From assembly GCA_965371385.1 (NCBI GenBank), contig CBDUYG010000001.1, positions 1 to 50,099 on the forward strand: a stretch of 50,099 nucleotides of DNA, given 5' to 3'. The notes beneath the pieces are model-generated. The model made no database searches. It worked only from the letters and a program-made list of their open reading frames with translations, and had not been told where the DNA came from. Each line of letters starts with the position of its first letter. Within the stretch, counting starts at the first letter, position 1. The DNA comes from an uncultured Myxococcales bacterium. Its GTDB lineage: Bacteria; Myxococcota_A; UBA9160; UBA4427. The position numbers were made by a program, and so were the translations under genes. Positions 8,657-48,457 of the stretch are shown here, piece after piece.

Positions 8657-8659
8657 GAT

Positions 8660-9871: not shown

Positions 9872-10058
9872 CGTTCATCATCCCCCATCGCGTCCGGGCT
9901 CCCATGCCTCCGAGCCCGAGGCGACCTTCCGGCCGCTCGATTCGCGATAATCCCTGCCTCCAGTTTCGACTCTCAGCGCTCGCCTCTTGGCTACGCGCTC
10001 CCGACCCTCTCTACATCCCTTCGCCGCCTCGCCCCTGCACCCATGCGGGGGAGCTCTC

Positions 10059-11138: not shown

Positions 11139-11150
11139 TTACGATGACTC

Positions 11151-12851
<1,701 letters not shown>

Positions 12852-22395: not shown

Positions 22396-23622
22396 TCAGA
22401 TCCGCGCGAGCTTCTCGTTGAGATTTTTGGAGACGATCGGCGGCACGAAGTCGTCAATGTTGGCGCCGAAGCGCACCAGCTCCTTGAGCCGTGAAGAGCT
22501 CACATAGAGGTGCTCCTGTCGCGTCATCATGTAGAGCACCTCGAGATCCGGGTCGAGGTGGCGATTCATCAGCGCCATCTCGAACTCGTACTCGAAATCC
22601 GCGCTGGCGCGCAGGCCTCGCAGGATCACCGTGGCGCCGATCTCGCGCGCGTACTCGACGACCAACCCGGAGAAGCCCTGGACCCTGACGCCCGCATGAC
22701 CGGCCAACACCTCGTTCAGCATCTCGAGCCGCTCATCGAAGCTGAACGTTCCCGTCTTGCCGACGTTGATCGCAACGGCGACGATGACCTCATCGAAAAT
22801 CCTGCAAGCGCGCTCGATGAGATCGAGATGGCCGTTCGTCATGGGATCGAAGCTCGCGGGGAAGAGAGCCACTGTGGTTCCCGGCGGGCCACCGGGCGTC
22901 TGCCGTCGGGTCCTGGCGTTCGGCTGCTTCTTTGACACCTCGGAGCTCTCCTCTCGTTCGCGTACGGGTCGCTGCGGTCTTTCGCAGCCGGTGCTGCTCG
23001 CCTCATCCGTGACATCGGCGACGAGTCGTGTGATCAAGGTATCTCCCGTGGAGCGCTGATCCAGGATCACGAACCCATCGGCCATGGGAAAAGAATGGCG
23101 CTTTGCGGTCTCGATCACCACCGCCCCCTCGGTCGCGAGCAAACGAGCCTCTCGAACTGCACGCAAGCTGCGCGTCACCTCGTCGGAATCGTAGGGAGGA
23201 TCCAGGAAGATCAGATCGAACTCCCTGCCCTGCTTGCCGAGCCGGCGGAGAGAGGGCGGCGCGTCACCTCGTATCACCTCGCTGACGCCCTCCAGGTCCA
23301 GGGCCTCGAGATTCTTGCGCAGGGCGCGCAGGGAGGCCACGGCCCGATCGATGAAGACCACATGTGCAGCCCCTCGGGAAATCGACTCGATCCCCAGCGA
23401 ACCGATTCCGGAGTAGACATCCAGAACACGCACCTGTGAGAGATCCCCGAGTCGCGCAAAGAGTGACTCGCGGACTCGGTCCGACGTCGGACGCACTCCC
23501 CGGGAAGGCGAAACCAGGATGCGACTCCCGAGATAACCACCGACCACTCGCACTGCCAACCCCGATGCAAAAAAGAGATCCCGCTTCGAAGTGGCTACTG
23601 AGCCCCTCGGACGAGTCCCCAT
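22396..23622 (-). CDS. rsmD/coaD: In-frame fusion of 16S rRNA m2G966 methyltransferase RsmD and phosphopantetheine adenylyltransferase CoaD
   Basis: Single 408-codon ORF. Residues ~20-200 are RsmD (RPTSDRVRESLFARL, VLDVYSGIGSLGIESISRGA, FLDPPY). Residues 201-247 form a charged linker. Residues ~248-408 are CoaD (ALFPASFDPMTNGHLDLIERA...ILRGLRASADFEYE). There is no stop codon between the halves. Confidence 0.8.
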   Translation of the reverse strand: MGTRPRGSVATSKRDLFFASGLAVRVVGGYLGSRILVSPSRGVRPTSDRVRESLFARLGDLSQVRVLDVYSGIGSLGIESISRGAAHVVFIDRAVASLRALRKNLEALDLEGVSEVIRGDAPPSLRRLGKQGREFDLIFLDPPYDSDEVTRSLRAVREARLLATEGAVVIETAKRHSFPMADGFVILDQRSTGDTLITRLVADVTDEASSTGCERPQRPVREREESSEVSKKQPNARTRRQTPGGPPGTTVALFPASFDPMTNGHLDLIERACRIFDEVIVAVAINVGKTGTFSFDERLEMLNEVLAGHAGVRVQGFSGLVVEYAREIGATVILRGLRASADFEYEFEMALMNRHLDPDLEVLYMMTRQEHLYVSSSRLKELVRFGANIDDFVPPIVSKNLNEKLARI

Positions 23623-34554: not shown

Positions 34555-37500
34555 ATGATGGAATTCCCGATGCGCGCACCCTCCGCGAACGCCACTGGAT
34601 ACGAAGAGCGCCTTCTTGCAGCGCTTCGCACGCCGATCGCAGCGTTCTGCTTGATCGCCATGCTCGGCCTGCCCGGAGCGGGTCGCGCAGGAGGAGGCCC
34701 ATCGAAGGAGCAAGCGACCGCGGCCGGCCCCTCGGCCGATATGGTCGGCCTGATCGAAGCACTTCCCTTGGATCCATTTTCGAGTGCGGCAGCGGCGAGC
34801 GCGGGGTGGACGGTCTTTGCACCCGGCGAGCTGATCGTGCGACTCCATGCAAGGGCGGGCAGCCAGGCCCACCACGCACTCGCAGACGGGTTTTCTCCCG
34901 CGCTACCGGGCGACCCCGCAGCAGCCCAGCTCGACGAAATGCTCCGTCAGCACAAGGCGAAGGGAATGCGCCGCATTTTCAAGCGCTACGAGAGCGCCGA
35001 CGGAAGGCAGATCGACACCGCACGCGCGCACCTTCAGCGAATTCGCAAAGCTCGCCGGACCCAGAACACGCGGCGCCTCCCCCCGTTGCCTGCGGACACG
35101 CCGGATCTCGAGAACTTCTTTCTCGTCGAGATGGCGGGGCTGGAGACGGCCGACGAGATGGACACGGTGATGGCGGAGCTGCGGAGCAACGATCTCGTAG
35201 CGGGCGTGCAGCCAAACTACCTCCACCGGCTCTTGATCGAGCCTCTACCGGACGTGAGCACCCTTCCCAATGATCCCTACGTGAGCATCGATGGCACGAG
35301 CTGGTCGCAGGGCAGCTTCGGAAACGCTTTTCCAGACCTCTATGGAGTCCGCAACCTGCACGTCCTCGAGGCATGGAGCCTCATGGACGCGAACGGCAAC
35401 GGAGTATTCGACGGCGGAGAGACCGCTCCGGGTCAGGGCGTGGTCGTTGCCGTGATCGATACCGGCCTGGATTCGGCGCACCCGGACATGGCGGGAGGCA
35501 TCTTCATCAACCCGGGAGAGATCCCGGGTGATGGAATCGACAACGACGCCAACGGGCTGGTGGATGACGTGAGTGGCTGGGACTTCGTCGACCGCGATCC
35601 CATTCCGGAGGATCGCAATGGTCACGGGACCCACGTATCCGGCACGATTGCGGCGGGGGCGAACAACGCCGAAGGGATCGTCGGCATCGCGCCATTCGCA
35701 CGAATCCTGCCGCTCAAGGCACTCAATGACCAGGGTGTCGGTTCGTCCGCGGCACTCGCCCTTGCCGTTCATTACGCAGCAGCCGTCGGTGCCCACATTA
35801 CCTCGAACTCCTGGGGTGGCGTGCTCCTCGATCCGCTGGTCGCGGCCGCGTTCGACAGCGCCGAAGCCAGTGGTGTGCTCTCCTTCGCAGCCGCCGGCAA
35901 CAGCGGTCAACCCTATATGCTCATGCCCGCCCTCTATCGAAGCGTCGTAGCCGTCGCCGCCGTCGACGCCGGCGATGTGCTGGCATCGTTCTCGAATTGG
36001 GGCGCGGGGCTCGATCTCTGCGCCCCCGGTGTGAACGTACTCTCACTCTCGGCGAACGATCACGACAACCGATTGGCCGAGATCAGCGGACGCACCGTGG
36101 GAGATCGCTACCTCTGGCTGAACGGCACGAGCATGGCGACGCCGCATACGAGCGGGGTGGCCGCTCTGATGATGAGTCTCCATCCCGACGAATCGGCCGC
36201 GGAGACCCTCGGCCGCCTGGTGCAATCGGCCATCTCGATCGAGTCACTGAATCCCGGACTAGAGGACGGCCTGGGCGCCGGCCGGGTGGATGCACTCACG
36301 AGCGCCACCGCAGTGCGAGCCCCGCTGTTGAAGCCGATCGCCATTCGCACGGGCGCGGTCGTCGCAGGTGAATTGGCCATCGTCGACGTGGAGGTGCAGA
36401 ACCTGTGGGCGTCCGCCACCGGCGTACACGCTTCGCTCGAGAGCGCTGACCCCGGCGTGAGCATCGTCGATGGCGAGCGCGACTATGGCGATCTGGCGAC
36501 CGGAGCGAGTGCTTCGAGAAGATTCGAAATCGAGATAGCACCGGAGGTCGAGTTCGGGAACGAACTCGACCTGATCCTGACCATCACCGCCCACGATGCT
36601 CCCACGCATGTGCACGAGTTCTCCGTGCGAGGCAGCTTCTTCGAGAACCAGGACTATCTCGCCAAGCTCGAGCCCGTCCCGCTCGTCGTCGTGGGTGCAA
36701 GCTTTGGCGACTTCGACGGCGACGAACTGCTGGACATGGGCGTCGGCGCTGCCTTCGCGAAGACCCAGCTCTACCGACAGCAGCTCGATGGAACCTTCGA
36801 GAAGCACCAGCCCAAGGGCTCTGGCTTCCTGCGCTCTCCGATCTTCGCCGACATGAACAACGACGGCCTCCTCGACATGTTGGCGATCGGACCCTCCAGC
36901 TATCGCGGTGCGGCCCTTGCCATCAACGTCGGAGGGGGGCGGTTCGAGGTTCTGCCGGATTCGAGCGGCTTCAGGTTCCCCCAGTACCGTCGAATCACGG
37001 GTTTTACGCCGATCGATCTCGACGCCGATGGCGACCTCGATGTGGTGGCTGGAGTCTACAGCCTCTTCCGCGACGACCAGGGCGTCCTCCGCAACATCGT
37101 GGTTCTGCGCAACAACGGAGATCTCACTTTTTCGGATGCCTGGGCGGCGACCGGGATGGGGAGGCTGATGGGCAGTCACCAGTTCATGACCCTCGACTGG
37201 GATGGTGACGGCTTCCAGGACCTACTCGGTCTGCATCGATACGCGAACCGCGTGGCGATTCATCGGAACGACGGGAAGGGAGGGTTCGAAGACGTGACCC
37301 GGATTGCCTTTCCGAAGGGGTCCCTCACGTGCAACGACTGGTGGAAGGGAGTTTGCGACTTCTTCGAGTCGGCGGCCGCCGGAGACTACGACAACGACGG
37401 CGACGTGGATCTTCTGCTGATCCACCAGCAGAACGTCTCCTCGGAGGACCAGCCCGTTGCCATGCTTCTCGCCAACGACGGGACAGGCGCCTACTCGGAC

Positions 37501-38484
37501 GTCACCGATCAGGCGGGGGATCTCGCGACGGTGGCCATGTTCAACGGTAGGTCGGGCCCCTCCTTCTTCGATCTGGAGAACGACGGGGATCTGGACATCC
37601 TCCTCCCAATCGACATCCTGCTCGCGGGGACTCCGCTGCGCACACCCGAGCCGACCGTCGTCATCATGCGCAATGACGGAGATGGATCCTTCACTCATGT
37701 CTCGGATATCGCACTGCCCCCCGACACGCCGCTGGCCAGCGTGGTCGCGGTCGTGGGGGACTACGATGACGACGGCGCGCAGGACATCCTCGCCCCGGTG
37801 GGGCCTTTCATCGGCGAGGCCGGGGGCCTGATGCACAATCTCGTGGGCCGGGATCACGCCTCACTCCAGGTCGAACTCAATGCGGTCGACAGCGCACCCA
37901 ATGGCTACGGTGCGCGGGTTACCCTGGTCGCCGATGAGCGGGTACAGGTTCGCGAGATCCACCACTCGCCTGTCGAGCCGTGGCGAGTCCATTTCGGTCT
38001 CGGCGATGCCGAGATCGTGGACGTCCTCGAGATCCGCTGGCCCAGCGGTGTCGTCGGGATCCGGCGCGACGTGGCGGTCGATCAACGAATCACCGTGGAT
38101 GAGGACATCCCCTGCCCGGATCTGCCCGACGGGCAATGCCCCATCGTAGAGATCGACATCGATCCCGACAGCGACGAGAACCAGGTCAATCTCAGAAACA
38201 ACGGACTCCTGCGCGTCGCGATCCTCGGCTCCGATCACTTCGACACGGCCTCGATCGACGTCACGAGGACCTTCTTCGCATCGGGAAGAGCGACTCCGGA
38301 GCACAAATCGGGTGGCCATCTCGAGGATGTGAACGATGACGGGCTGCCCGATTGGGTCTCCCACTACCGCATTCCAGCGACGGGCATCGAGCCGGGCGAC
38401 GACGAAGCCTGCCTTCGCGGCCAGATGCTGGATCGCACCCCGTTCAGGGGCTGCGATCGAATCCGCATCAAGTCGCCCCGTTGA
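34555..38484 (+). CDS. Secreted multidomain protein: subtilisin-like S8 peptidase, FG-GAP/VCBS repeat region, ASPIC/UnbV domain and a C-terminal domain
   Basis: 1309 aa with a signal-like N-terminus. S8 triad motifs VAVIDTGLD, HGTHVSGTI and GTSMATPH (about 35338-36300). At least 7 FG-GAP-type Ca-binding loops, e.g. FGDFDGDELLDM, IDLDADGDLDVV, GDYDNDGDVDLL (about 36688-37809). UnbV motif GYGARVTLV...VHFGLGDAEIVDVLEIRWPSG (about 37852-38100). Confidence 0.85.
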   Translation: MMEFPMRAPSANATGYEERLLAALRTPIAAFCLIAMLGLPGAGRAGGGPSKEQATAAGPSADMVGLIEALPLDPFSSAAAASAGWTVFAPGELIVRLHARAGSQAHHALADGFSPALPGDPAAAQLDEMLRQHKAKGMRRIFKRYESADGRQIDTARAHLQRIRKARRTQNTRRLPPLPADTPDLENFFLVEMAGLETADEMDTVMAELRSNDLVAGVQPNYLHRLLIEPLPDVSTLPNDPYVSIDGTSWSQGSFGNAFPDLYGVRNLHVLEAWSLMDANGNGVFDGGETAPGQGVVVAVIDTGLDSAHPDMAGGIFINPGEIPGDGIDNDANGLVDDVSGWDFVDRDPIPEDRNGHGTHVSGTIAAGANNAEGIVGIAPFARILPLKALNDQGVGSSAALALAVHYAAAVGAHITSNSWGGVLLDPLVAAAFDSAEASGVLSFAAAGNSGQPYMLMPALYRSVVAVAAVDAGDVLASFSNWGAGLDLCAPGVNVLSLSANDHDNRLAEISGRTVGDRYLWLNGTSMATPHTSGVAALMMSLHPDESAAETLGRLVQSAISIESLNPGLEDGLGAGRVDALTSATAVRAPLLKPIAIRTGAVVAGELAIVDVEVQNLWASATGVHASLESADPGVSIVDGERDYGDLATGASASRRFEIEIAPEVEFGNELDLILTITAHDAPTHVHEFSVRGSFFENQDYLAKLEPVPLVVVGASFGDFDGDELLDMGVGAAFAKTQLYRQQLDGTFEKHQPKGSGFLRSPIFADMNNDGLLDMLAIGPSSYRGAALAINVGGGRFEVLPDSSGFRFPQYRRITGFTPIDLDADGDLDVVAGVYSLFRDDQGVLRNIVVLRNNGDLTFSDAWAATGMGRLMGSHQFMTLDWDGDGFQDLLGLHRYANRVAIHRNDGKGGFEDVTRIAFPKGSLTCNDWWKGVCDFFESAAAGDYDNDGDVDLLLIHQQNVSSEDQPVAMLLANDGTGAYSDVTDQAGDLATVAMFNGRSGPSFFDLENDGDLDILLPIDILLAGTPLRTPEPTVVIMRNDGDGSFTHVSDIALPPDTPLASVVAVVGDYDDDGAQDILAPVGPFIGEAGGLMHNLVGRDHASLQVELNAVDSAPNGYGARVTLVADERVQVREIHHSPVEPWRVHFGLGDAEIVDVLEIRWPSGVVGIRRDVAVDQRITVDEDIPCPDLPDGQCPIVEIDIDPDSDENQVNLRNNGLLRVAILGSDHFDTASIDVTRTFFASGRATPEHKSGGHLEDVNDDGLPDWVSHYRIPATGIEPGDDEACLRGQMLDRTPFRGCDRIRIKSPR

Positions 38485-38691
38485 TCCTGGGGATACGCTC
38501 GGCGCCTCGTCGAGAAGTTCAACGACGAGCGTGCCGGGTCAGGTCCGCGCTTGCGCTGAGTTCCACGATCGCCTCAGGTCGCCCACCGACTCTTCGTCCC
38601 TGGCCTTCGAACCAAAGGCGGGAGGGACATGGCGTCACCCCGTGCGATCGCCTACTCGCCGCCGCCAACCTCGAGTTCGAGATACCGAGGC

Positions 38692-41600
38692 TCAGGCCAT
38701 CATCTCGCCCATTTCGCGCAGCTGCGCCACGGCGTCGTCGGGCAGTACGGGGGGCTCCTTCCCGACCGCGTAGCAGCCCAGGATGATCTCGGCGGTTCGC
38801 TCGACCACCTCGGCCATGTCGGCGGCTTTGCGAAGGCTCATCCCACCCACCACCAGACCGTGATTCTTGAGCAGGATCGCGTGGGCATCCTGCGCGGCCT
38901 TCCCGACCTCCTCCGCCAGCTCGCTGCTGCCCGGCATGATGAAGGGCAGCCGCGGGATCTCGCCGAAAAAGGCCGCCTCGGTTGAAATGGGGAGGAAGGG
39001 GAGGTCGGCGTTGGCAAGGATCGTTGCGTGAGGAGCGTGGCAGTGGATCACCGCATGGGTCCGGGGCCGCGCCTGGTAGATTGCGATATGCACCATACTT
39101 TCACTCGACGGGCTACCTCCCTCGCCGATCTTCTTTCCGTCCATCCCGACCTTCACCATGATCTCGGGGTCGAGACTGCCCTTGAACATGGCGCTCGGCG
39201 TGATCCACATCGCCTCCTCGCCGGGGATGCGGACGCTCACGTTGCCTCCCGTCGCCGTGATGAGCGCGATGTGATAGAGCTCGTCCACCACATCGCAGAG
39301 ATCGTCGCGCACGTCTCCCACGCGGCGCCGACCGACCGGGACGCCCGGCGCTGCAGCCGCTGCGCCCCTGCCCCGCTTCTTCTTGCCGCCGGCCGCCTTG
39401 GCGAACTTCTCGAGGTCCCCCGGATCGCCGACCTTCTCTCGCGCCCCCTGGTAGAGACGGCTCAGCCCGCCCAGGATGTCCTGGATCGTCATCGCCTTGG
39501 CGGCGTCGCCCATGAAGCTGAGCTCGCCCTCCATGGCCTTCTCCATGGCGTTGATCTTGCCGGTGAACATGCCGTCCAGGATATAGGCCTTCATCTTGAG
39601 CTGGACGTCGGCATCCTCCTTGGGCGCACCCATACCGCCGCTGATGGCGCCGCCCGTGAAGCGGAACCAGAATTCCTCGCCGAGGTCACTGACGTTGAAG
39701 TGCAGCGCGACGTCCTGGGGCACATCGCTCGCAAGGTCTGCGTCGCTGATGATGCCCTGCACGAACTCTCTGCAGATGCGCGCCATGATCTGGCGATTTT
39801 CTTCGGGGATCTCGTCCGCCATGCTCTCCTCCTCCTCGTTGCCCTGCCCTCGTGCGGCAGTGCTTCTCGCCGATCTCCCGGCCGACCCGGGCTTCTTCTG
39901 TAGATCCGAGACCGCGGGGCCCGCCGTGTCGGCCAGCGCCGCCAGCGCCTCGGGATCCGGCTCGGGCCGGGGCCGACTCAGATCGAGACCCTCCAGACAC
40001 TCGGGATTGAGTGCATGACGCGGCCGTTCGCCCTGCAGAATGCGCCGCAAGTCCTCGGCGATGATGCGTCCCTGGTGGGTCGCCACCTCATAGGTGTTGC
40101 CGCCGATGTGGGGTGTGGCGATTACATTTTCGAGTTGGAGCAGGGGATGATCCCAGCCGGGCGGCTCCACGGAGAAGACGTCGATGGCCGCCGCGCGGAT
40201 GTGGCCATCCTCCAGGGCATCCACCAACGCATCCTCATCGATCAGGGCCGCGCGGGCGGTGTTGATGAAGAAGGCTCCCGGCTTCATGGCCCGGAACTGC
40301 TCCGCGCCCATCATGCCCACGGTGCTCTCGCTGGCGGGCAGATGCAGGCTCACGAAGTCACTCTGCTCGAGCAGCTCGAGAAAGCTCACCTTGCTGGCGC
40401 CATGGAGAGCGGCCTGCTCGCCGGTGACGAAGGGATCGGAGACGATGACCCGCACGCCGAAGGGAACCAGCCTCTCGGCCGTCTTCTTTCCGACCGCCCC
40501 AAAGCCCACCAGGCCGAATGTCTTGCGCCAGAGCTCCCGCCCCTGGAGCTGCCCGAAGGCCGCACCCATCTTGCCGAGATCGCCTGCCTCCACGTCTTCG
40601 TCACGCAGAAACTCGTTGGCTTCGAAGAGCCTGCGGGCGAGACTGATCGCGTAGCCCACGGTGAGGTCCGCCACCGCGTCGGCATTGCGACCGGGCGCGT
40701 TGATCACCGGGATCCCCAGGGCGGTCATGCCCGGGATGTCGATGTTGACCGGATCGCCGCGGCAGGTGGCGATGACACGCAGATCCTTGCACTTCTGGAT
40801 CGACTCCGTGTCGACCGGATCGACCTCGCAGATGAATACTTCGTGACCTTGCAGCGCCTCGACGAGGCCCGGCCCCGTGAGCAGGGTGTGGGTCTCGCGG
40901 AAGCTCTTGTAGGTGATGTCGCCGAGCTCTCCCAGGGCCGACAGGGACTCGTCGTCCATGCTGGCCGAGATCAGGATCCTGGTGCGGCGCAGCTCCTTCG
41001 CCTGGGAGTCGGCGTCGGCCGCCGACGTCAGCATCTGGACCATCTTGATTTGCTGGCCCACGGCGATCGACTCGGCCTGGGCTTCGCGCAGGCGATCCCA
41101 GTCCGCATACAAGGCCTGATAGCGGTTGCTGATCCCGGCCTCGGGAGAGAAGCGGCGACTTCGCCGAGCCAGGGCCCGGGCGCCCGCCTCGAGACTCTCG
41201 AAGACCCCCGCGCCCACCCCAGCGCAGAACGCTGCACCCAGGGCCGAGGCCTCGTGACAGTCGCCGGCCTCGACCTCGACCCCCAGTACGTCGCTCAGGA
41301 TCTGGGCGAAGACGTCGCTGCGCGACAGGCCACCGGCGAGCATCACCCTCTCGGCCTTGCTCGAAACGACCGCCTCCAGCAGCTCGAGGTTCTTCTTCAA
41401 GCCGAAGGCGAGGCCTTCGACGACCGCACGGGCGAGATCGGAGCGCTCGGGCCGACCCGAGGTCAGGAGATGGCTCAGGCTGATGCTGCCGAAGGGGAGC
41501 TGGATCCGGGTTCCATCCTGCACGCCGGCTCCGAATGTGGACAGGATCCCCTGGGAGCCCGGCGCCGCCAGGGCCGCACTGCCCAGCAGTGCAGCGGCAG

Positions 41601-42591
41601 GACTGGGCGAGGTGGGATGCAGCATCCGACCGATCCAGTCGAGGGCCTCGCCGACCGGCCCGGGGTTGGCCTCGAGGAGGAAGCGCCCGGGTACCACGTG
41701 CTGGCCCGACCAGGCCCGATACTCGGGGTCGATGCGGGGTTCGTCCAGAATCCATTGCACGGGAGCGGTCGTGCCCGCGACGATTCCCACCGCCCCGGGC
41801 CGGCTGGCCCCCACGCCGAGCATTCCGCATTGGGTGTCCGCTCCCCCGACCGCGACGACGATGCCGGGCCTGAGGCCGAGCTTCTCGGCCGCATCGGCAC
41901 CGAGTTGGCCCAGCTTCTCCCCCGACACCCGCACCTCCGGAAACACGAGCGGCGAGAGCCCGATCTCTTCGATGAGGTCGTCGGCCCAACGACCGTCCGC
42001 GATATCAAAGATGCCGGTCTCGCAAGCCTGGGAGCGATCCGTCACCAGCTCGCCGCAGAGTCGGTATGCGACCCAATCGTTCAGGCTGACGATCGATCGG
42101 GCCCGCGCGAACGCTTCGGCATTGGTTTGTGCCAGCCAGACCAGGCGCGCCACCGGGAAGCCCGGGTTGGGGAAACGCCCGGTGCGCTTCGCGATCTCGG
42201 GGCCGTGCTCGCTCGCCAGGGTGATGCCCTGGAGTGCGGCGCGCCCATCGCGATTGGGACCCGCGTAGAGCACCTCTCCGTGATCGCCCAGGATGACGGT
42301 TCCGAAGCGCATGGCGCTGACCGCAATCCCCACGACGTCCTCGACCGGGGTGCCGCTCTGCTCGAGCACTCGTCGCGTCGCGGTGCAGAGATCGAGAAAC
42401 ATCGCATCGAGGTCGGCATCGAAGCCGACGCCCCCGGTGCCCACCGCCTGGGGAAAGGCCCAGGGAACGAGAGCGGAGGTCGTCTCGCCGCTGCTCGTGT
42501 CCAACAGGAGCGCGCGACCACCCCCCCCACCGATATCAAGTCCGACCACACTACTCATGCGTTCACTCACATCCCTCGAATCGAGAGCCAT
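38692..42591 (-). CDS. Four-domain fusion protein: FGGY carbohydrate kinase, D-isomer-specific 2-hydroxyacid dehydrogenase, SCP2 domain, class II aldolase/adducin-N domain
   Basis: One 1299-codon ORF with no internal stop.
- **FGGY, aa ~13-505 (nt 41077-42555):** VVGLDIGGGGG, VGGADTQCGMLGVG, MLAGGLSRS...EASALGAAFCAG.
- **2-HADH, aa ~537-862 (nt 40006-40983):** GFGAVGKKTA, INTAR, DVFSVEP, ATPHIGGNT.
- **SCP2, aa ~935-1045 (nt 39457-39789):** ADVQLKMKAYILDGMFTGKINAMEKAMEGELSFMGD.
- **Aldolase_II, aa ~1092-1275 (nt 38767-39318):** SSESMVH, VIHCHAPH, LLKNHGLVVGG. Confidence 0.85.
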   Translation of the reverse strand: MALDSRDVSERMSSVVGLDIGGGGGRALLLDTSSGETTSALVPWAFPQAVGTGGVGFDADLDAMFLDLCTATRRVLEQSGTPVEDVVGIAVSAMRFGTVILGDHGEVLYAGPNRDGRAALQGITLASEHGPEIAKRTGRFPNPGFPVARLVWLAQTNAEAFARARSIVSLNDWVAYRLCGELVTDRSQACETGIFDIADGRWADDLIEEIGLSPLVFPEVRVSGEKLGQLGADAAEKLGLRPGIVVAVGGADTQCGMLGVGASRPGAVGIVAGTTAPVQWILDEPRIDPEYRAWSGQHVVPGRFLLEANPGPVGEALDWIGRMLHPTSPSPAAALLGSAALAAPGSQGILSTFGAGVQDGTRIQLPFGSISLSHLLTSGRPERSDLARAVVEGLAFGLKKNLELLEAVVSSKAERVMLAGGLSRSDVFAQILSDVLGVEVEAGDCHEASALGAAFCAGVGAGVFESLEAGARALARRSRRFSPEAGISNRYQALYADWDRLREAQAESIAVGQQIKMVQMLTSAADADSQAKELRRTRILISASMDDESLSALGELGDITYKSFRETHTLLTGPGLVEALQGHEVFICEVDPVDTESIQKCKDLRVIATCRGDPVNIDIPGMTALGIPVINAPGRNADAVADLTVGYAISLARRLFEANEFLRDEDVEAGDLGKMGAAFGQLQGRELWRKTFGLVGFGAVGKKTAERLVPFGVRVIVSDPFVTGEQAALHGASKVSFLELLEQSDFVSLHLPASESTVGMMGAEQFRAMKPGAFFINTARAALIDEDALVDALEDGHIRAAAIDVFSVEPPGWDHPLLQLENVIATPHIGGNTYEVATHQGRIIAEDLRRILQGERPRHALNPECLEGLDLSRPRPEPDPEALAALADTAGPAVSDLQKKPGSAGRSARSTAARGQGNEEEESMADEIPEENRQIMARICREFVQGIISDADLASDVPQDVALHFNVSDLGEEFWFRFTGGAISGGMGAPKEDADVQLKMKAYILDGMFTGKINAMEKAMEGELSFMGDAAKAMTIQDILGGLSRLYQGAREKVGDPGDLEKFAKAAGGKKKRGRGAAAAAPGVPVGRRRVGDVRDDLCDVVDELYHIALITATGGNVSVRIPGEEAMWITPSAMFKGSLDPEIMVKVGMDGKKIGEGGSPSSESMVHIAIYQARPRTHAVIHCHAPHATILANADLPFLPISTEAAFFGEIPRLPFIMPGSSELAEEVGKAAQDAHAILLKNHGLVVGGMSLRKAADMAEVVERTAEIILGCYAVGKEPPVLPDDAVAQLREMGEMMA

Positions 42592-42777
42592 TGGGGGTGA
42601 CCGCTTCGCCTCGTCATCCGATCAGGGGATCGTCTACCCAAGCCAGAACAATTCGTCAAAGCGTATATACATTCAGTCTACCGCGCAAATTTGCCACGTT
42701 TCACAGGCGGTCGCAACTCGGGGCGCTGCCAGACACTGGATGCGGTGCCTCGCGCAAGATCCCTGCCTGCCCGAGGG

Positions 42778-42938
42778 CCCTGGGAGTCTGGCGGCTCGGC
42801 TGGCGCCAGCGCAGCGCGGTAGACGGTTGGGGATTCCGAGCGGGGTGATGCGCCCCATCGAAGAGAAGGCCGACGCATCCGTGGCCCGATGCTGGAGCGC
42901 ACCCGTTTACGGGCTGCGATCGAATCAGCTCCAGGTCG
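42778..42938 (-). pseudogene. Remnant of the 3' end of an anmK paralogue (frameshifted, about 50 codons)
   Basis: Translation ASAFSSMGRITPLGIPNRLPRCAGASRAARLPG matches the AnmK C-terminus AMAFSLMGRNALLGIPNHLPRCTGASRAAVLGE at 23/33. The nucleotide core at 42815-42841 matches 32355-32381 at 25/27. Upstream similarity (DLELIRS vs VQLDRF) continues only in another frame, and an in-frame TAA lies upstream. Confidence 0.6.
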
Positions 42939-42943
42939 CGATG

Positions 42944-44092
42944 CTAACTCTGGAGACGCTCGGCCTCGTCGAGGAGCTCATCGACGAGCGTGTCCAGCCA
43001 GGTCTGCGCGTGCGAGCTGGAGAGCAGGGTCCTGAAGGCGGGCCAGCCGGCATCCGCCAGAGCGTCGATCGGCGGGCGGGCCCCGCCCTCCGTGAGCTGC
43101 AACACCTGGCCCAGGCTCTTCCCGGCGGAGGCTTCCATCGCCCGATCGATCCAGGCGTCGATATTCGCCCGCGTCTCCGGCATGCCCGCCACGTGTCGCG
43201 CAGTGAGCTCCACGATCTCTCCCAGGTCGCCCACCAGCTCTTCGTCAGCGGCTTTCAGATGGAAGGCGGGAGACTTCGACAGCATGAAGCCTGCAATGTT
43301 GATGCGGAGCTCGATCGAGGACGGGTCGTCGAGCCTGTCGATCGCGACGTCGGCCGCGCTCTCGAGCACGCGCCCTGTGCTGTCGGCCAGGAACGACTTG
43401 ATTTCGGGCTCGATGAGCTTCTCCAGCTCATCGATCAGCTTCTCCATCATGGCTCCGGCGCCACCCAGCATCCCGAAGCGCCCCATGGGAGAGACCTTCA
43501 CCAGCATGCGCGGCAGAAGTGTCGAGAAGTCCTTCAAGGTGCGGTAGAGCGCGTCGTTGACCACTCCTTCCACGGCCTCGCCGCGGAACATGGCGCGAAG
43601 CAGATCGGGGTCGACGAGCCCGGGCCGCGCCAGGGTCTCGCGTAACCTGTCGTGCGCCTCGGGCGGGAGAAGCCGATCGATCGGCTCTTCGGCCGCGCGC
43701 AGCTCGGAGAGAATCGAGCGGGCGATTCCCGCAACGATCGGCCGCGACAACTCTGTCATGAGATCGGGGTCCAGCAGCCGATCGGCCAGCTCTCTCGCGG
43801 CATCACGATCGATGAGGTCGTGAACCGGTGTGGCGAGGAGATGATCCCAGCCGGCTTGCCAGAGCCGGCGCCACTCCTCCCTTGGGCGCTCTCCCTCCAT
43901 GAGCCGGGCCCGAAGCCAACGCTTCAGCTCCCCACGTTGGTCGTCGTCGGCGCCCATGAGACCGACCTTAGCCCGCGCCATGGGGTTGGGGTAGCCTGCT
44001 GGCAGCCCGCTGAAAAACCCTTCGGCCGCCATGCACGGCCCTTGGGACCGATCTCTGCGTTGGGGGCCCCCGGAGCTGGGCTTCCCGGTCAC
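42944..44092 (-). CDS. Hypothetical protein (predicted mostly helical, no family recognised)
   Basis: 382-codon ORF with GC3-rich codon usage like its neighbours. No recognisable motif. Possible later starts at 44032 or 43981. Confidence 0.5.
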   Translation of the reverse strand: MTGKPSSGGPQRRDRSQGPCMAAEGFFSGLPAGYPNPMARAKVGLMGADDDQRGELKRWLRARLMEGERPREEWRRLWQAGWDHLLATPVHDLIDRDAARELADRLLDPDLMTELSRPIVAGIARSILSELRAAEEPIDRLLPPEAHDRLRETLARPGLVDPDLLRAMFRGEAVEGVVNDALYRTLKDFSTLLPRMLVKVSPMGRFGMLGGAGAMMEKLIDELEKLIEPEIKSFLADSTGRVLESAADVAIDRLDDPSSIELRINIAGFMLSKSPAFHLKAADEELVGDLGEIVELTARHVAGMPETRANIDAWIDRAMEASAGKSLGQVLQLTEGGARPPIDALADAGWPAFRTLLSSSHAQTWLDTLVDELLDEAERLQS

Positions 44093-44267
44093 TGCGTGGA
44101 CCGCGATAACTTGCCGTGGCGTGAACTACGGCGGCGTTTCCGCGCCTCAACGGCCGGCAGAGCCGGCTAGGCATCGGTGGCCTTCGGCCACCTCGTCTCG
44201 GGCCAGACGACCGCACCTGGCTCGGTCAGGGTTCTTCAACGGCCCGCCAGCCGAGGCAAGGAAAACG

Positions 44268-45737
44268 ATGGACGAGCTGAGCTACCGATCGGCCCGCGAC
44301 TGCCTGGCGCTCTTGCGCAAGGGCGAGGTGAGCTCCGTCGAGCTCGTCGATTCCTGCATCGCACGCATCGAGTCCCTGAATCCCGAGATCAATGCGGTCG
44401 TAGCAACGAACTACGATCGAGCGCGGGAGTGCGCGCGGGCCTCCGACGCGGCGCGCTCGCGTGGTGAGGAGCTCGGCGCGCTGCACGGTCTTCCGATGAC
44501 GATCAAGGATTCGTTCGAGACCGCGGGCCTGGTGACGACATCGGGTGCGCCGGAGCTGCGCGATCACATCCCCCGTCAGGACGCAGTGGCGGTCGCTCGC
44601 GTGATCGACGCCGGCGCGATCGTCCTGGGAAAAACCAACCTGCCCCTCTATGCGGGCGATTGGCAGAGCTACAACGAGGTATACGGGCGCAGCAACAACC
44701 CCTGGGACCTGACGCGCACCGTGGGAGGCTCCTCGGGCGGCAGCGCCGCATCGATCGCTGCGGGCTTCGTCCCGCTCGAGATCGGCAGCGACATCGCAGG
44801 GTCGATTCGAATTCCCGCCGGCTATTGCGGTGTCTATGGGCACAAGCCTACGTACGGAATCGTTCCCGTACGCGGCCACATCCCGGGACCGCCGGGGACC
44901 CTGGGCGAGCCCGACCTGGCCGTGGCGGGCCCTCTTGCTCGAAGTGCTGCCGACCTTCGCCTGGCCCTCGACGTCATCGCGGGTCCGGACGATCTCTCGG
45001 CGAGCGGATGGAGACTCGAGCTGCCGCCGCCACGCGCCGAGGAGCTGAAGGATTTCCGCGTCGGGGTCTGGCTCGACGACCCGCTCTGCCCGATCGAGAC
45101 GGCCGTACGCGCGGAGCTCGAGGCCACGGTCGTCGCGCTCCGGCCGCACGCGCAGCTCATCGACCTCGCTCTTCCATTCAGGCTGGAGGACATCGTCCCG
45201 GGTTATCTGCAGCTGCTGACGAGCGTCGTGGCCCCAGACATTCCGCGGGCACTCCGTCTGCTCACGAGCCTCTTGCTGCCCTACTACTCACTGGCCGATC
45301 GAATCGGAAGCGAGACGAACCTGATGACGAAGAACGGGGCGCGGGGCATGCACCTCTCCCACTCCGACTGGATTCGCGCCGACGAGGCTCGCAACCGACT
45401 TCGCCGACAGTGCCACGCGCTCTTCGACCACGTCGACGTGCTGCTGACACCCGTCACTCCCTTTACGGCGTTTCCTCATCAGACCGGCGGACATCACCTA
45501 TCGCGGCGAATCGACGTGGACGGAGAGGCGCGCCCCTACATGGACCACGTCCCGTGGATCGCGCTGGCAACGTCGGCATTCCTGCCGGCTACCAGCGCGC
45601 CGGTGGGGATCACCCCGGACGGACTTCCGGTCGACGTGCAGATCATCGGTCCGCATCTGGGCGACGAGACGACGATCCGTTTCGCGGAGCTGCTGGCAGA
45701 CGTTCGAGGTGGATTCAAAAAGCCGCCCGGCTGTTGA
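44268..45737 (+). CDS. Amidase-signature family amidase
   Basis: MDELSYRSARDCLALLRKGEVSSVELV is a typical N-terminus. Signature GGSSGGSAASIAAG and catalytic-region motifs (LHGLPMTIKD...). ATG at 44268; the tracked ORF starts at 44031. Confidence 0.85.
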   Translation: MDELSYRSARDCLALLRKGEVSSVELVDSCIARIESLNPEINAVVATNYDRARECARASDAARSRGEELGALHGLPMTIKDSFETAGLVTTSGAPELRDHIPRQDAVAVARVIDAGAIVLGKTNLPLYAGDWQSYNEVYGRSNNPWDLTRTVGGSSGGSAASIAAGFVPLEIGSDIAGSIRIPAGYCGVYGHKPTYGIVPVRGHIPGPPGTLGEPDLAVAGPLARSAADLRLALDVIAGPDDLSASGWRLELPPPRAEELKDFRVGVWLDDPLCPIETAVRAELEATVVALRPHAQLIDLALPFRLEDIVPGYLQLLTSVVAPDIPRALRLLTSLLLPYYSLADRIGSETNLMTKNGARGMHLSHSDWIRADEARNRLRRQCHALFDHVDVLLTPVTPFTAFPHQTGGHHLSRRIDVDGEARPYMDHVPWIALATSAFLPATSAPVGITPDGLPVDVQIIGPHLGDETTIRFAELLADVRGGFKKPPGC

Positions 45738-45820
45738 GTCCGCAGCGCTCCGGGGACCCACTGGGCCTGCGCCGTTCGGCAGGCGGTTGACACACCCGGC
45801 TCGGTGCTCACGCTGGATGC

Positions 45821-46372
45821 ATGATGAACAAACTGCTCCCTGTCCAGCTCGACGCTTCCTGCGCCGAATGTCTGATATTCACCGAAAAGGAAGGCCTTCT
45901 CTCCACTGTCGCTCACGACCTCGAGATCGAGGTCACCGACTTCGAGATCTCGTGGGACGCAGAGGCGCTCACGGCCCGCTTCTCTCCCCGCAGCCTGCGC
46001 GTCGTGAACGCCATGAAGAACAAGCGCAAGGCCCCTGGAGCCCTCAGCGACTCCGACAAGACGAAGATCGAGAAGCACATCATCGACGACGTGCTGCAGG
46101 CGAAGAAGCATCGCAAGATCGAATTCCGCTCCAGCAGTGTCGTGGCCGAAGGCAAGGGATTTCGGATCGAGGGGGAACTCACCCTCCACGGCGTCACACG
46201 CCCCATCAAGCTCAAGCTGAGCCGACGCGGCGAACGCTGGAGCACTCAGGTGTCGATCGACCAGACGGACTATGGCATCAAGCCCTTCAGCGCGATGCTC
46301 GGAGCTCTGAAGGTCAAGCCGAAGCTGCGCGTAAAGCTTTCGCTGGCGGCAGAAGACCTTCCGCTGGAGTGA
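45821..46372 (+). CDS. YceI-like (polyisoprenoid-binding family) protein
   Basis: 183 aa. IEGELTLHGVTRPIKLKLS...IDQTDYGIKPFSAMLGALKVKPKLRVKLSL resembles the YceI-like domain C-terminal half. Confidence 0.55.
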   Translation: MMNKLLPVQLDASCAECLIFTEKEGLLSTVAHDLEIEVTDFEISWDAEALTARFSPRSLRVVNAMKNKRKAPGALSDSDKTKIEKHIIDDVLQAKKHRKIEFRSSSVVAEGKGFRIEGELTLHGVTRPIKLKLSRRGERWSTQVSIDQTDYGIKPFSAMLGALKVKPKLRVKLSLAAEDLPLE

Positions 46373-46693
46373 CGAGCTTCGCCCGGCGGCCCCTCCTCCG
46401 GTCGATCGAGCCAGAACGTCGCCCCAACAGGTCGAGATGCGCCGCGAACTCTCGGTCCCGATTCTCGAAGAGCCCGCCGGGAGGCTCCTCTCTCCACCCC
46501 GACCCATTCCCCAAGACGCCACGTGCCTGACGAGACGATGCTTGACCCCATTCAGTGTGGGGAGTAGGATGGCTCGATCCGTCGATCTCCGACCGTCGGG
46601 CGGCCGACGACCCCACTCCGGTGTAGGATCGGCTGACGGATGGATGTCGATCTCGTGGGTTTGGTCGATGGACTCGTGGATGATGATGTAGTC

Positions 46694-46717
46694 GATGGAG
46701 ATGGAGATGGAGATGGA
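46694..46717. repeat. Hexanucleotide tandem repeat (GATGGA)x4
   Basis: gatggagatggagatggagatgga, preceded by (GAT)x3 at 46679-46687. Lies in a C-poor stretch of the 460-nt spacer upstream of the ceramidase-like gene. Confidence 0.7.
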
Positions 46718-46794
46718 GATGGCGTAGGAAAAATCGCCGTAGATGTGCAGAGTTCGGTCGATGCTCATGGATACAATGAGAAATAGTCAAACGA

Positions 46795-46812
46795 AGCCGG
46801 CTGCAGCCGGCT
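46795..46812. promoter_or_regulatory. 18-nt perfect palindrome (candidate operator or hairpin)
   Basis: AGCCGGCTGCAGCCGGCT is its own reverse complement. It ends 19 nt before the ATG at 46832 and just upstream of the GGAGG SD. Confidence 0.3.
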
Positions 46813-46831
46813 AGATTCCTGGAGGCCTCAC

Positions 46832-48457
46832 ATGCGTTTGCAACTCCCGCTCTTCAACGTCCGTTTCCGACCTCACCCGAGCCTGCTTGCGCTCGTCGCT
46901 CTCGTCTTCGCCGCCAGCCCGGCCTTCGCCGGCGGCTCGCTGGAGGTCGGCACCTGCCAGCGCGACATCACTCCCATCTCGCCCTCGCTCCAGGCGACCT
47001 ACGAGGCGCGCTTCGGGGTGCCGGGCGTCGTGAACCACACCGACCCGGTCTACATGGCGGGCTTCGGCAACAACCGCCAGGCCACGGGCTACAACGATCG
47101 GCTCTGGGCACGCGGCGTCGTGCTCGACCGCAAGGACTCCCGGGTGGCGATCGTCTCAATCGACGTGGTCGGCTACTTCAAGAATGAGATCGACACGATC
47201 CGCGCCCTGGTCTCGTCGTCCTCGGAGGTCGACTTCGTTCTCGTCTCGAGCTCGCATCAGCACGAGGGGCCCGACACGATGGGGCTCTGGGGGCCGGACG
47301 AGCTCACGACCGGAATCGACTTCGGCTACCTCGATTTCGTCAATGCGACGATCGCCGACTGCATCGACGAGGCCGCCGCGAACCTCGAGAAGGCTCGCAT
47401 CTACTACGCCACGACAAGCAGTGCTGGACTTTCCCTGGGAATCGACCCCGAAGACGACGGCTACGGAGTGGGAGACGGCAAGGTGCTCGTCAACGACGAC
47501 TCCCTCGCTCCGGCCACCCAGGGACGCATCGTCGATCCGAACATCACCGTCATGCAGCTGACGAAGCGCAATGGCAAATCGCTCGAGGTGCTCGCGACCC
47601 TCGTCAACTTCGCGAGCCACCCGGAGAGCCTGGGCTCGAGCAACACGAACATCACCTCGGACTTCCCGCACTACGTTCGCGAGACCATCGAGGCCGAGTA
47701 CGGCGGCCTCGCCATCTGGATGTCGGGCGACCTGGGCGTCCTTCAGGGCCCGCTCGACATCGACGTGCTGGATCCGGTCACCAACCAGCCCGCGCCCCGG
47801 CGGACGTTCCGCTTCGCAGAGGTTCACGGCAGCCAGGTCGCCGAGCGCGCCATCGAGGCAATGAACGCCGTGCGGCTCAAGAACGGCAAGCCCAGCCCCA
47901 GCAACGGCGCCCCCGCCCCCGAGATCTCCCACTCGACCACGGATCCATTGTATATCCGGCTCGACAACCCGTACTTCCGGTTCTTCATCGCCATCGGCGT
48001 GATCGACGTGAGGCGCTCGCTCTACACGAACGGGATTCCCGACGACTCCGTCGGCTTCCCCTACCCGCCGCCCTTCCACGAGATCCCCCTGGCGGAGGGC
48101 GAGGACCTCCGGACGGAGGTCTCCGCTCTGCGCATCGGCGAGGGCGCGATCGCGGTGGTTCCGACCGAGCTCGATCCGCAGATCGGCTCCACGTACCGCG
48201 CAGCGCTCGTGGACGCTACCGGCGCGGAGCACACCATGATCGCCGGCCTCGGCAACGACTCGATCGGCTACCAGGTGGTGGCCTCGAAGTTCGATGACAG
48301 CTGCTTCGTCTGCGCGCCCTTCATTCTCGGCGGCGTGACCCAGCTCTGCCCGCTCTTTCCCAACATCGACTGCAACACGGTCTTCCAGAACAACGTGGGG
48401 GTGCAGGTCAGCCCGAGCGTGACGGGCGCCTTCGAGCAGGCGGTCGACGGTCTGTGA
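46832..48457 (+). CDS. Secreted neutral/alkaline ceramidase-like hydrolase
   Basis: 541 aa with a signal peptide (LLALVALVFAASPAFAGG). N-terminal pattern DITP...MAGFGNNRQATGYNDRLWARGVVL...VAIVSIDVVG...SSSHQHEGPD resembles the neutral ceramidase N-terminal domain. Confidence 0.5.
   Translation: MRLQLPLFNVRFRPHPSLLALVALVFAASPAFAGGSLEVGTCQRDITPISPSLQATYEARFGVPGVVNHTDPVYMAGFGNNRQATGYNDRLWARGVVLDRKDSRVAIVSIDVVGYFKNEIDTIRALVSSSSEVDFVLVSSSHQHEGPDTMGLWGPDELTTGIDFGYLDFVNATIADCIDEAAANLEKARIYYATTSSAGLSLGIDPEDDGYGVGDGKVLVNDDSLAPATQGRIVDPNITVMQLTKRNGKSLEVLATLVNFASHPESLGSSNTNITSDFPHYVRETIEAEYGGLAIWMSGDLGVLQGPLDIDVLDPVTNQPAPRRTFRFAEVHGSQVAERAIEAMNAVRLKNGKPSPSNGAPAPEISHSTTDPLYIRLDNPYFRFFIAIGVIDVRRSLYTNGIPDDSVGFPYPPPFHEIPLAEGEDLRTEVSALRIGEGAIAVVPTELDPQIGSTYRAALVDATGAEHTMIAGLGNDSIGYQVVASKFDDSCFVCAPFILGGVTQLCPLFPNIDCNTVFQNNVGVQVSPSVTGAFEQAVDGL

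Follow-up and report, generated by a model that had tools for sequence, protein, structure and literature searches.

FGGY-family kinases are paired with class II aldolase-fold enzymes in several sugar pathways, namely FucK/FucA, RhaB/RhaD, AraB/AraD and LyxK/SgbE with the dehydrogenase YiaK, all of them encoded as separate genes in sugar operons that also contain transporters and regulators. A comparable logic is followed by the tetronate pathway (LtnD/DenD-OtnI-OtnK-OtnC), in which a dehydrogenase, an ATP-dependent kinase and a class II aldolase-fold enzyme that cleaves a C-C bond beside a phosphorylated keto group give rise to dihydroxyacetone phosphate (DHAP) or a ketose phosphate. SCP2 folds fused to catalytic domains occur in MFE-2/HSD17B4, SCPx and alkylsulfatases, which act on hydrophobic substrates. 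We describe here a gene located in a 50,099-nucleotide stretch of DNA from an uncultured Myxococcales bacterium (the window; contig CBDUYG010000001.1 of assembly GCA_965371385.1, positions 1 to 50,099), in which an FGGY kinase, a D-isomer-specific 2-hydroxyacid dehydrogenase, an SCP2-like domain and a Zn-type class II aldolase-fold domain are joined in a single polypeptide. As judged from its conserved residues, the product is very probably a real, conserved and catalytically active multifunctional enzyme.

The fusion differs from each of these systems. In contrast to the FucK/FucA-type pairs, no sugar context was found for it. The enzymes of the tetronate pathway are separate proteins, its kinase belongs to DUF1537 and not to the FGGY family, its dehydrogenases are of the beta-hydroxyacid or short-chain dehydrogenase/reductase (SDR) type rather than D-2-hydroxyacid dehydrogenases, an isomerase is required and SCP2 is absent. 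A variant of this pathway, Ltn3D/3OtnK/3OtnC, converts C4-C6 sugar acids through a dehydrogenase, a kinase and a class II-fold decarboxylase (PMC12994016), an arrangement that is analogous but non-homologous to the fusion. Finally, the SCP2-like domains of MFE-2, SCPx and alkylsulfatases are located at the C-terminus and combined with SDR/hydratase, thiolase or sulfatase domains, whereas that of the fusion is internal, lies between the dehydrogenase and the aldolase-fold domain, is partnered with sugar-type enzymes and binds a ligand only putatively. The fusion is best regarded as a variant that combines familiar types of enzymes and has no assigned function, not as a categorically new system.

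Domain architecture of the fusion

The gene lies in an uninterrupted minus-strand open reading frame (ORF; 38692..42591) of 1299 codons plus stop with zero internal stops. Translation probably starts at M12 (nucleotide 42558), giving a coding sequence of 38692-42558 and a product of 1288 aa, since the first 11 residues fall into gaps of the homologs in an alignment of 120 full-length family members, on which the residue counts below are based unless stated otherwise, and since the deposited product of the source contig (P0131) is also 1288 aa long. A preliminary description, made from the letters of the DNA only, had read the ORF as a fusion of FGGY kinase, 2-hydroxyacid dehydrogenase, SCP2 and class II aldolase. 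The intact frame and the Pfam search it had suggested agree with this reading, all four named domains scoring above their gathering cut-offs, and the motifs it quoted were found in place: DIGGGGG at ORF residues 19-25, GGADTQCG at 249-256, SSESMVH at 1162-1168, IHCHAPH at 1182-1188, KNHG at 1242-1245 and KKKRGRG...RRRVG at 1069-1091. The features, numbered along the ORF, are:

41038..42558, minus strand: FGGY-family kinase domain, LsrK-like, aa 12-518 (Pfam, NCBIfam, PDB 5ya0), with FGGY_N at aa 15-259 (125.5 bits, gathering cut-off 28.8) and FGGY_C at aa 383-460 (61.8 bits, gathering cut-off 27)
40006..40974, minus strand: D-isomer 2-hydroxyacid dehydrogenase domain, aa 540-862 (Pfam, NCBIfam, PDB, Foldseek), with 2-Hacid_dh at aa 540-862 (54.9 bits) and 2-Hacid_dh_C at aa 646-830 (183.4 bits)
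39898..39921, minus strand: conserved linker 1 motif GPAVSDLQ, aa 891-898 (conservation, AlphaFold2)
39859..39888, minus strand: short disordered linker, aa ~902-911 (predicted local distance difference test score, pLDDT, <50 in AlphaFold2)
39412..39810, minus strand: SCP2-like domain, aa ~928-1060 (Pfam, PDB 4jgx, AlphaFold2, conservation), with SCP2 (PF02036) at aa 963-1040 (37.6 bits, cut-off 21.3, E=2.9e-9)
39319..39396, minus strand: basic linker 2 (KKKRGRGAAAAAPGVPVGRRRV), aa 1066-1091 (gaps in homologs, low pLDDT)
38713..39312, minus strand: class II aldolase-fold, Zn-type domain, aa 1094-1293 (Pfam, FucA alignment, conservation), with Aldolase_II at aa 1097-1270 (158 bits)

The region downstream of the kinase (aa 520-1299) was modelled with AlphaFold2 from a 45-sequence alignment, with a mean pLDDT of 87. 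A Foldseek search with this three-domain model returned no multi-domain match in the PDB, only single-domain dehydrogenases with a query TM-score of at most 0.39; relative to the target, the TM-score reached 0.8-0.93 for GRHPR, McyI and PGDH. The model also bears on the connections between the domains, which had been described as two long, low-complexity basic linkers. This holds for linker 2, which is basic, poorly conserved, mostly represented by gaps in the homologs and modelled at a pLDDT of 36-40. Linker 1 (aa 863-925), however, is not basic, its most frequent residues being A, E, P, L, G and S, and it contains a structured motif: P892, D896 and L897 are invariant in alignments of 30 and of 45 sequences, and GPAVSDLQ is modelled as short helices packed after the dehydrogenase, with a pLDDT of ~86-88 up to aa ~899. 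Predicted disorder is limited to aa ~902-911 and ~1070-1087, about 10 and 18 residues, respectively.

The SCP2 segment has the alpha/beta fold of its family in addition to a score above the gathering threshold, and it matches the fatty-acid-binding SCP2 of PDB 4jgx at E=8e-5. It is modelled at a pLDDT >90 in the order three helices, four strands, two helices, one strand and two helices, and terminates in a conserved G-D-P-G-D-L. With many of its residues invariant, the module is, by the alignment, as conserved as the three catalytic domains. A query consisting of linker and SCP2 retrieved only 148 matches (E<=1e-3) among 1.84 billion representatives clustered at 50% identity, most of them members or fragments of the fusion family together with a few stand-alone SCP2 proteins of ~130 aa. 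This SCP2 subtype is thus, by this search, nearly restricted to the fusion family, and the small number of matches indicates that the family is well delimited and moderate in size.

Active-site residues and subfamily placement

Both actin-like ATPase domains of an FGGY kinase (FGGY_N and FGGY_C) are present. The catalytic Asp252 within GGADTQCG is invariant (120/120), as are G273 and G421 (both 120/120), with T274 in 116/120 and G420 in 117/120 members; D19 and G21 are invariant or nearly so. The canonical phosphate-1 loop DxGT(T/S) is replaced by D19-x-G21-[GS]-[GS]-[GS] in 118/120 members (D19-I-G-G-G-G-G in the query), so that the Asp and the first Gly are retained and the Thr residues are substituted. 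The loop had been noted as atypical; it does depart from the canonical form but is the norm of the family and no local oddity, and, being family-wide, it leaves the FGGY fold assignment standing. The closest characterised relative of the domain is LsrK, which shares the S-M-R and GGxDxQxG motifs and, as PDB 5ya0, was aligned over aa 9-503 (E=5e-55). With NCBIfam equivalog cut-offs used as the subfamily test for each domain, the LsrK model (NF008187) aligned end to end but reached only 251 bits against a cut-off of 528, the XylB model reached 197 bits against 380, and the domain stays far below the cut-offs of the ribulokinase, fuculokinase and xylulokinase equivalogs. LsrK differs further in its loop, DAGTGS as opposed to DxGGGG, and no lsr genes were found near the fusion gene in the window or in the neighbour census described below. 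By these scores, the label 'autoinducer-2 kinase' attached to family members in JGI and UniProt is an over-annotation.

The dehydrogenase comprises both domains of the D-isomer-specific 2-hydroxyacid dehydrogenases, with the GxGxxG motif, an acidic NAD residue and the Arg-Glu-His triad. G696, G698, G701, D719 and the catalytic residues R780, E809 and H828 are all invariant, and the NAD-type Asp719 suggests NAD as the predicted cofactor. Particular to the family are R611, which is invariant, and R635-N636 (119/120), placed in the PGDH-type substrate-binding loops by alignment to PGDH from Mycobacterium tuberculosis, whose PDB entry matches the domain at E=3e-47. PGDH is also the best-scoring NCBIfam model (TIGR01327), although its 221 bits fall short of the cut-off of 454, and GhrB scored 149 bits against 492; no equivalog assignment resulted.

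The C-terminal domain belongs to the class II (Zn) aldolase/adducin fold and is FucA-like in its ligands, catalytic Glu and phosphate pocket. Equivalences were drawn from an alignment to E. coli FucA (N29, T43, S71, S72, E73, H92, H94 and H155). The counterparts of the Zn ligands H92, H94 and H155 (H1183, H1185 and H1244) and of the catalytic Glu73 (E1164) are invariant, and the phosphate pocket formed in FucA by N29, T43, S71 and S72 is conserved as well, with N1117, S1162 and S1163 invariant and S1133 in 115/120 members. Further features of the domain are T1114-G-G-N1117, T1131 and the conserved loop S1203-T-E1205. This loop marks a difference from FucA, since FucA Tyr113 aligns to Ile1202 and the conserved S-T-E1205 occupies its place; in a hand-made ungapped alignment to the AraD sequence, E1205 would lie one position from AraD Asp120, which serves as a lead only. 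The acid/base residues of these subfamilies are Tyr113 in FucA and Asp120 and Tyr229 in AraD. The best-scoring NCBIfam model was OtnC (NF043034, 3-oxo-tetronate 4-phosphate decarboxylase; 119 bits against a cut-off of 250), followed by the L-ribulose-5-phosphate 4-epimerase subfamily (109 bits against 251) and the FucA models (103-109 bits; TIGR01086, 102.7 against 400). No cut-off of the FucA, OtnC or AraD type was reached and Tyr113 is not kept; because the OtnC, epimerase and FucA models lie within ~15 bits of each other and are about equally distant, the score does not separate aldolase, epimerase and decarboxylase chemistry.

The residues regarded as diagnostic in the preliminary description are thus present and invariant across the 120 homologs, and with the catalytic and cofactor-binding residues conserved to this extent, each active site being under purifying selection, the three enzyme domains look catalytically competent. 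Judged by profile scores, each domain is a member of its superfamily and of no characterised subfamily.

Distribution of the family and its split relatives

A search of 5.8 billion protein clusters (90% identity clusters, E<=1e-10) returned 344 matches. Among the best 120, 119 were full-length (1243-1481 aa) with the same set of Pfam domains and the remaining one was a 782-aa fragment; the best matches were 42-75% identical to the query. Among the sources named are Polyangiaceae, Myxococcota, Candidatus Acidoferrales, Anaerolineales and Mycobacterium kansasii, and complete genomes of M. kansasii (for example WP_099187488.1), M. pseudokansasii and M. innocens encode orthologs with 52% identity across 99% of the length. 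In JGI metagenome contigs, 440 relatives were detected, and all of the 80 loci fetched were full-length. The family spans at least four phyla, including Myxococcota, Acidobacteriota, Chloroflexota and the M. kansasii group. Far from being unusual for its family, the fusion is the form in which this conserved family normally occurs, with more than 120 full-length clusters at 90% identity and on hundreds of contigs from several phyla. Its sequences have long been present in public databases under generic or contradictory names such as 'NAD(P)-dependent oxidoreductase', 'class II aldolase/adducin family protein' and 'autoinducer-2 kinase'. The suggestion that the architecture might already be common and characterised consequently holds for its spread; a characterised member was not found in a full-text literature search, which was not exhaustive and covered few papers from subscription journals, and within that coverage the search agrees with the earlier statement that no characterised enzyme combines all four domains.

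The longest members (1440-1481 aa) form a clade that is labelled Anaerolineales (Chloroflexota) where a source is named. In the member examined individually, L049 (P0106), tblastn located two tandem SCP2 domains between dehydrogenase and aldolase (8001-12323); the other clade members are P0052, P0061, P0069, P0077, P0078, P0082 and P0083. Separately, in a metagenome-assembled genome of Caldilineaceae (L015, 10001-13760), tblastn suggests FGGY-like, 2-hydroxyacid dehydrogenase and second FGGY-like segments in one stretch.

Relatives of the individual domains also occur as separate genes. In Acidimicrobiia and other Actinomycetota, adjoining genes encode a dehydrogenase (37-46% identity) and an aldolase (31-35%), without SCP2 and without an FGGY kinase within 10 kb. 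They are surrounded by genes for enoyl-CoA hydratases, a thioesterase, a P450 and Amidohydro_2 proteins, and in one locus (L017) they are preceded by an AMP-binding ligase gene whose stop overlaps the start of the dehydrogenase. A two-domain dehydrogenase-aldolase fusion suggested for Acidimicrobiia by the genome scan proved to be two such adjoining genes. A trio of 2-hydroxyacid dehydrogenase, decarboxylase and CoA-ligase, uncharacterised, has been described in the oestrogen-degradation cluster of Rhodococcus B50 (aedJ/aedG/aedH; PMC8913865), where the family of AedH is not stated.

A second arrangement was found on a linear plasmid of Streptomyces atratus (NZ_CP108284.1, 11824-17761; L130), which encodes separate FGGY, 2-hydroxyacid dehydrogenase and divergent class II aldolase/epimerase proteins, together with a SorC-type regulator and an MFS transporter. 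Because these proteins are only 28-37% identical to the fusion and have a canonical DAGTT loop and an AraD-like DHAYY motif, the cluster is a distant cousin from a different subfamily. Its layout resembles that of M. tuberculosis Rv0727c-Rv0729 (fucA/serA2/xylB), which are candidate split orthologs of the fusion. The split relatives in S. atratus and in the Actinobacterial CoA-ligase/2-hydroxyacid dehydrogenase/class II aldolase operons place the same enzyme families next to each other, and this recurrence shows a functional link between the families. They differ from the fusion in sequence (28-46% identity), in lacking SCP2 and, in the Actinobacterial pairs, in having no FGGY kinase nearby.

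Gene neighbourhood and candidate reactions

Neighbouring genes were compared across 65 non-redundant loci, with proximity defined as lying within 1.5 kb and without correction for shared ancestry or synteny. ORF clustering in these loci and the context of seven homologs gave no obligatory or dominant partner gene: 113 immediate neighbours match 98 Pfam families, the most frequent being Ser/Thr kinase (6), AMP-binding (4), P450 (3) and TetR (3). No sugar transporter, sugar regulator, isomerase or dehydratase was found near the gene in the 65 loci. The analogy to AraB/AraD, FucK/FucA and yiaK-S drawn in the preliminary description, with equivalog scores far below the cut-offs and no sugar genes in these loci, is a mere resemblance.

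Several families were nevertheless found close to the gene, usually on its strand. These were TetR regulators (7/7 copies within 1.5 kb; binomial p=6e-5), AMP-binding proteins (8/13, all on the same strand; p=0.006), NAD-epimerase/3beta-HSD/NAD_binding_4 proteins (6/10; p=0.02) and DUF1329 (LolA-like) proteins (4/6; p=0.04); pooled with SDR and P450, 29/50 copies were within 1.5 kb, compared to 25% expected (p=7e-7). In one locus (L054), genes for Thiolase_C_1, TetR and P450 precede the fusion gene, whose start overlaps the P450 stop, and in another (L110) a P450 gene precedes it. In L062 it is followed by an AMP-binding gene whose start overlaps its stop. L006 has a KshA-like Rieske gene, the fusion gene, a glyoxalase and an AMP-binding gene, then acyl-CoA dehydrogenases and a P450, and in M. 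kansasii the gene is followed by an APH-type kinase, two AMP-binding ligases, an aldehyde dehydrogenase and a WS/DGAT gene. Together, the neighbour statistics give a moderate hint of a hydrophobic or CoA-activatable substrate.

The fusion is inherited as a unit, with three catalytic centres intact by their residues and a conserved SCP2 module in one polypeptide, and on balance we lean towards a cytoplasmic, vertically conserved enzyme that would carry out three consecutive reactions on one substrate. The LsrK-like FGGY domain would use ATP to phosphorylate the terminal CH2OH of a hydroxy-carbonyl compound, and the NAD-type, PGDH-like dehydrogenase, with R611 and R635 in its substrate loops, would interconvert the 2-hydroxy and 2-oxo forms of an anionic intermediate; either order of these two steps is possible. 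The Zn aldolase-fold domain, in which the FucA phosphate pocket is kept, would then form a Zn-enediolate and perform a retro-aldol cleavage or the decarboxylation of a beta-keto acid, releasing a C3 phosphate such as DHAP and a second fragment.

What the substrate might be is suggested, more weakly, by the SCP2 module, which may hold a hydrophobic or CoA-activatable part of the substrate or of the second fragment, because SCP2 directly precedes the aldolase and is doubled in one clade, because the neighbours described above occur in about one third of the loci, and because sugar genes are absent nearby. We consider an amphiphilic substrate a tentative proposal; the preliminary description had touched on one in passing, and the recurrent TetR, P450, AMP-binding, NAD-epimerase and DUF1329 genes do fit it better than a plain sugar pathway, but in a minority of loci. 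If SCP2 presents a hydrophobic substrate, the family would join sugar-phosphate-type chemistry to lipid catabolism. In its most specific and rather doubtful form, the proposal would amount to an ATP-driven 'aldolytic trimming' of amphiphiles, with SCP2 holding the hydrophobic body while the catalytic domains oxidise, phosphorylate and retro-aldol-cleave a polyol or hydroxy-ketone head or side chain. Candidate substrates would be a hopanepolyol or sterol side chain, a keto-triol with a long chain or a DPD-like dione with an alkyl substituent, and the products DHAP and an aldehyde or acid of fatty or isoprenoid type. Hydroxylation by a P450 might come first in some genomes, where the product might be passed to the adjoining acyl-CoA ligase and TetR might exert control. 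If true, this would be an undescribed route from the removal of lipid head groups or side chains to glycolysis.

Several observations weigh against this interpretation. At least one of the AMP-binding, TetR, NAD-epimerase, DUF1329 and P450 families is found within 1.5 kb in only 22/65 loci, so that the idea of a hydrophobic substrate leans on a minority, and none of these neighbours is present in the window itself; the counts, moreover, ignore shared ancestry and concern families that are abundant in these phyla. FGGY kinases and arginine-rich PGDH/PdxB-like dehydrogenases normally act on small polar molecules, and SCP2-fold domains are sometimes purely structural, as in the C-terminal domain of mycobacterial Eis. 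The split Actinobacterial aldolases retain the motifs of the phosphate pocket without an FGGY kinase within 10 kb, which makes the pocket weaker as proof of a phosphorylated substrate. With each domain at about the same distance from several characterised subfamilies and none of the equivalog cut-offs reached, the substrate cannot be derived by homology, and a predicted template-modelling score (pTM) of 0.62 for the AlphaFold2 model neither fixes the arrangement of the domains nor proves channelling.

The alternative that survives best, and which we regard as a serious though still unlikely possibility, is a salvage route for a small, polar keto- or acid-sugar that would follow the tetronate (LtnD/OtnI/OtnK/OtnC) or yiaK-S/LyxK systems in its logic, with SCP2 in a structural or regulatory role. 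The dehydrogenase would set up a keto acid from a tetronate or other aldonate, a 2,3-diketo-aldonate or a DPD-like dione, the kinase would act on the terminal hydroxyl, and the aldolase-fold domain would decarboxylate or cleave the product to DHAP or a ketose phosphate. It is consistent with OtnC as the best model for the aldolase domain, with LsrK, which acts on a C5 dione, as the nearest relative of the kinase, and with PGDH, PdxB and GhrB, whose substrates are phospho- or keto-acids, as those of the dehydrogenase. The two loop arginines R611 and R635, next to the NAD-type D719, likewise suggest an anionic substrate, and the sugar acid pathway of PMC12994016 uses the same succession of enzyme kinds. 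The solitary position of the gene, with no transporter, would suit the salvage of an endogenous by-product. The regulator and transporter of the S. atratus cluster point in the same direction, but the cluster represents a different subfamily, and the 65 loci are devoid of genes for sugar or sugar-acid transport, regulation, isomerisation and dehydration. A D-2-hydroxyacid dehydrogenase, in addition, yields a 2-oxo acid, whereas OtnC-type decarboxylases use 3-oxo acids and no OtnI-like isomerase is present, and the invariant, sometimes duplicated SCP2 would be left unexplained. If the substrate were nonetheless a small keto acid, the family would provide a new kinase/dehydrogenase solution for tetronate-like salvage.

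A non-catalytic or regulatory scaffold with one or more degenerate domains, as in adducin or CtBP, perhaps under the control of a neighbouring Ser/Thr kinase, appears very improbable. Ser/Thr protein kinase genes do lie within 1.5 kb in 7/8 copies, from 7 loci (p=4e-4), and the phosphate-1 loop lacks its canonical Thr residues, but the catalytic and cofactor-binding residues of all three enzymes are invariant in 120 sequences. Downstream of the fusion gene, a synteny block of Ser/Thr kinase, cation-efflux (CDF) and pyruvate kinase genes was observed in several loci, including L046 (12001-16389) and L096 (13545-17896). The adjacency of the kinase, as part of this block, probably reflects shared ancestry. 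A frameshift, misassembly or chimeric contig joining three or four genes, for which the separate genes of the S. atratus plasmid and of Acidimicrobiia could be cited, is excluded for practical purposes by hundreds of independently assembled contigs and complete M. kansasii genomes that show the same architecture and length, by conserved motifs within the linkers and by a GC content at third codon positions (GC3) that is evenly high along the ORF (0.84).

The obligatory fusion of four textbook families across phyla marks a metabolic function hidden by present annotation. As the protein is apparently self-contained, one recombinant protein could reveal the whole three-step pathway, and the ortholog in the culturable and genetically tractable M. 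kansasii makes the question directly testable.

The architecture is common rather than unique, and the window itself adds no functional clues. The gene is solitary there, within housekeeping genes (CoaBC, AnmK, DacB and SLT). Its convergent neighbour (34555-38484, plus strand) encodes a 1309-aa protein in which a subtilase (Peptidase_S8) is accompanied by five FG-GAP repeats and an ASPIC/UnbV domain. Upstream, the gene is flanked by an intergenic stretch of about 400 bp with an AT-rich patch near 42640-42710; no Rfam match to a known RNA element or riboswitch was obtained in 38000-44100, and no sigma-70-like promoter and no convincing terminator were found upstream of the gene or in its flanks. 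A divergent ORF of 185 aa (42990-43547, plus strand) is a doubtful gene, since it has no Pfam match and an odd GC content by codon position (GC1 0.45, GC2 0.65, GC3 0.88). Some 1.5 kb upstream of the fusion gene, a same-strand run on the plus strand (44031-48457) consists of an amidase (44031-45737), a YceI-like lipid/polyisoprenoid-binding protein (45821-46372) and, as its last gene, a protein with a weak match to the N-terminus of neutral ceramidase (46832-48457); the run has a lipid-amide flavour, and its link to the fusion gene is not established. Elsewhere in the window, a 408-aa ORF (22396-23622, minus strand) joins an RsmD-like 16S rRNA methyltransferase (Cons_hypoth95) to a CoaD-like cytidylyltransferase domain, RsmD and CoaD being encoded by adjoining but separate genes in many bacteria.

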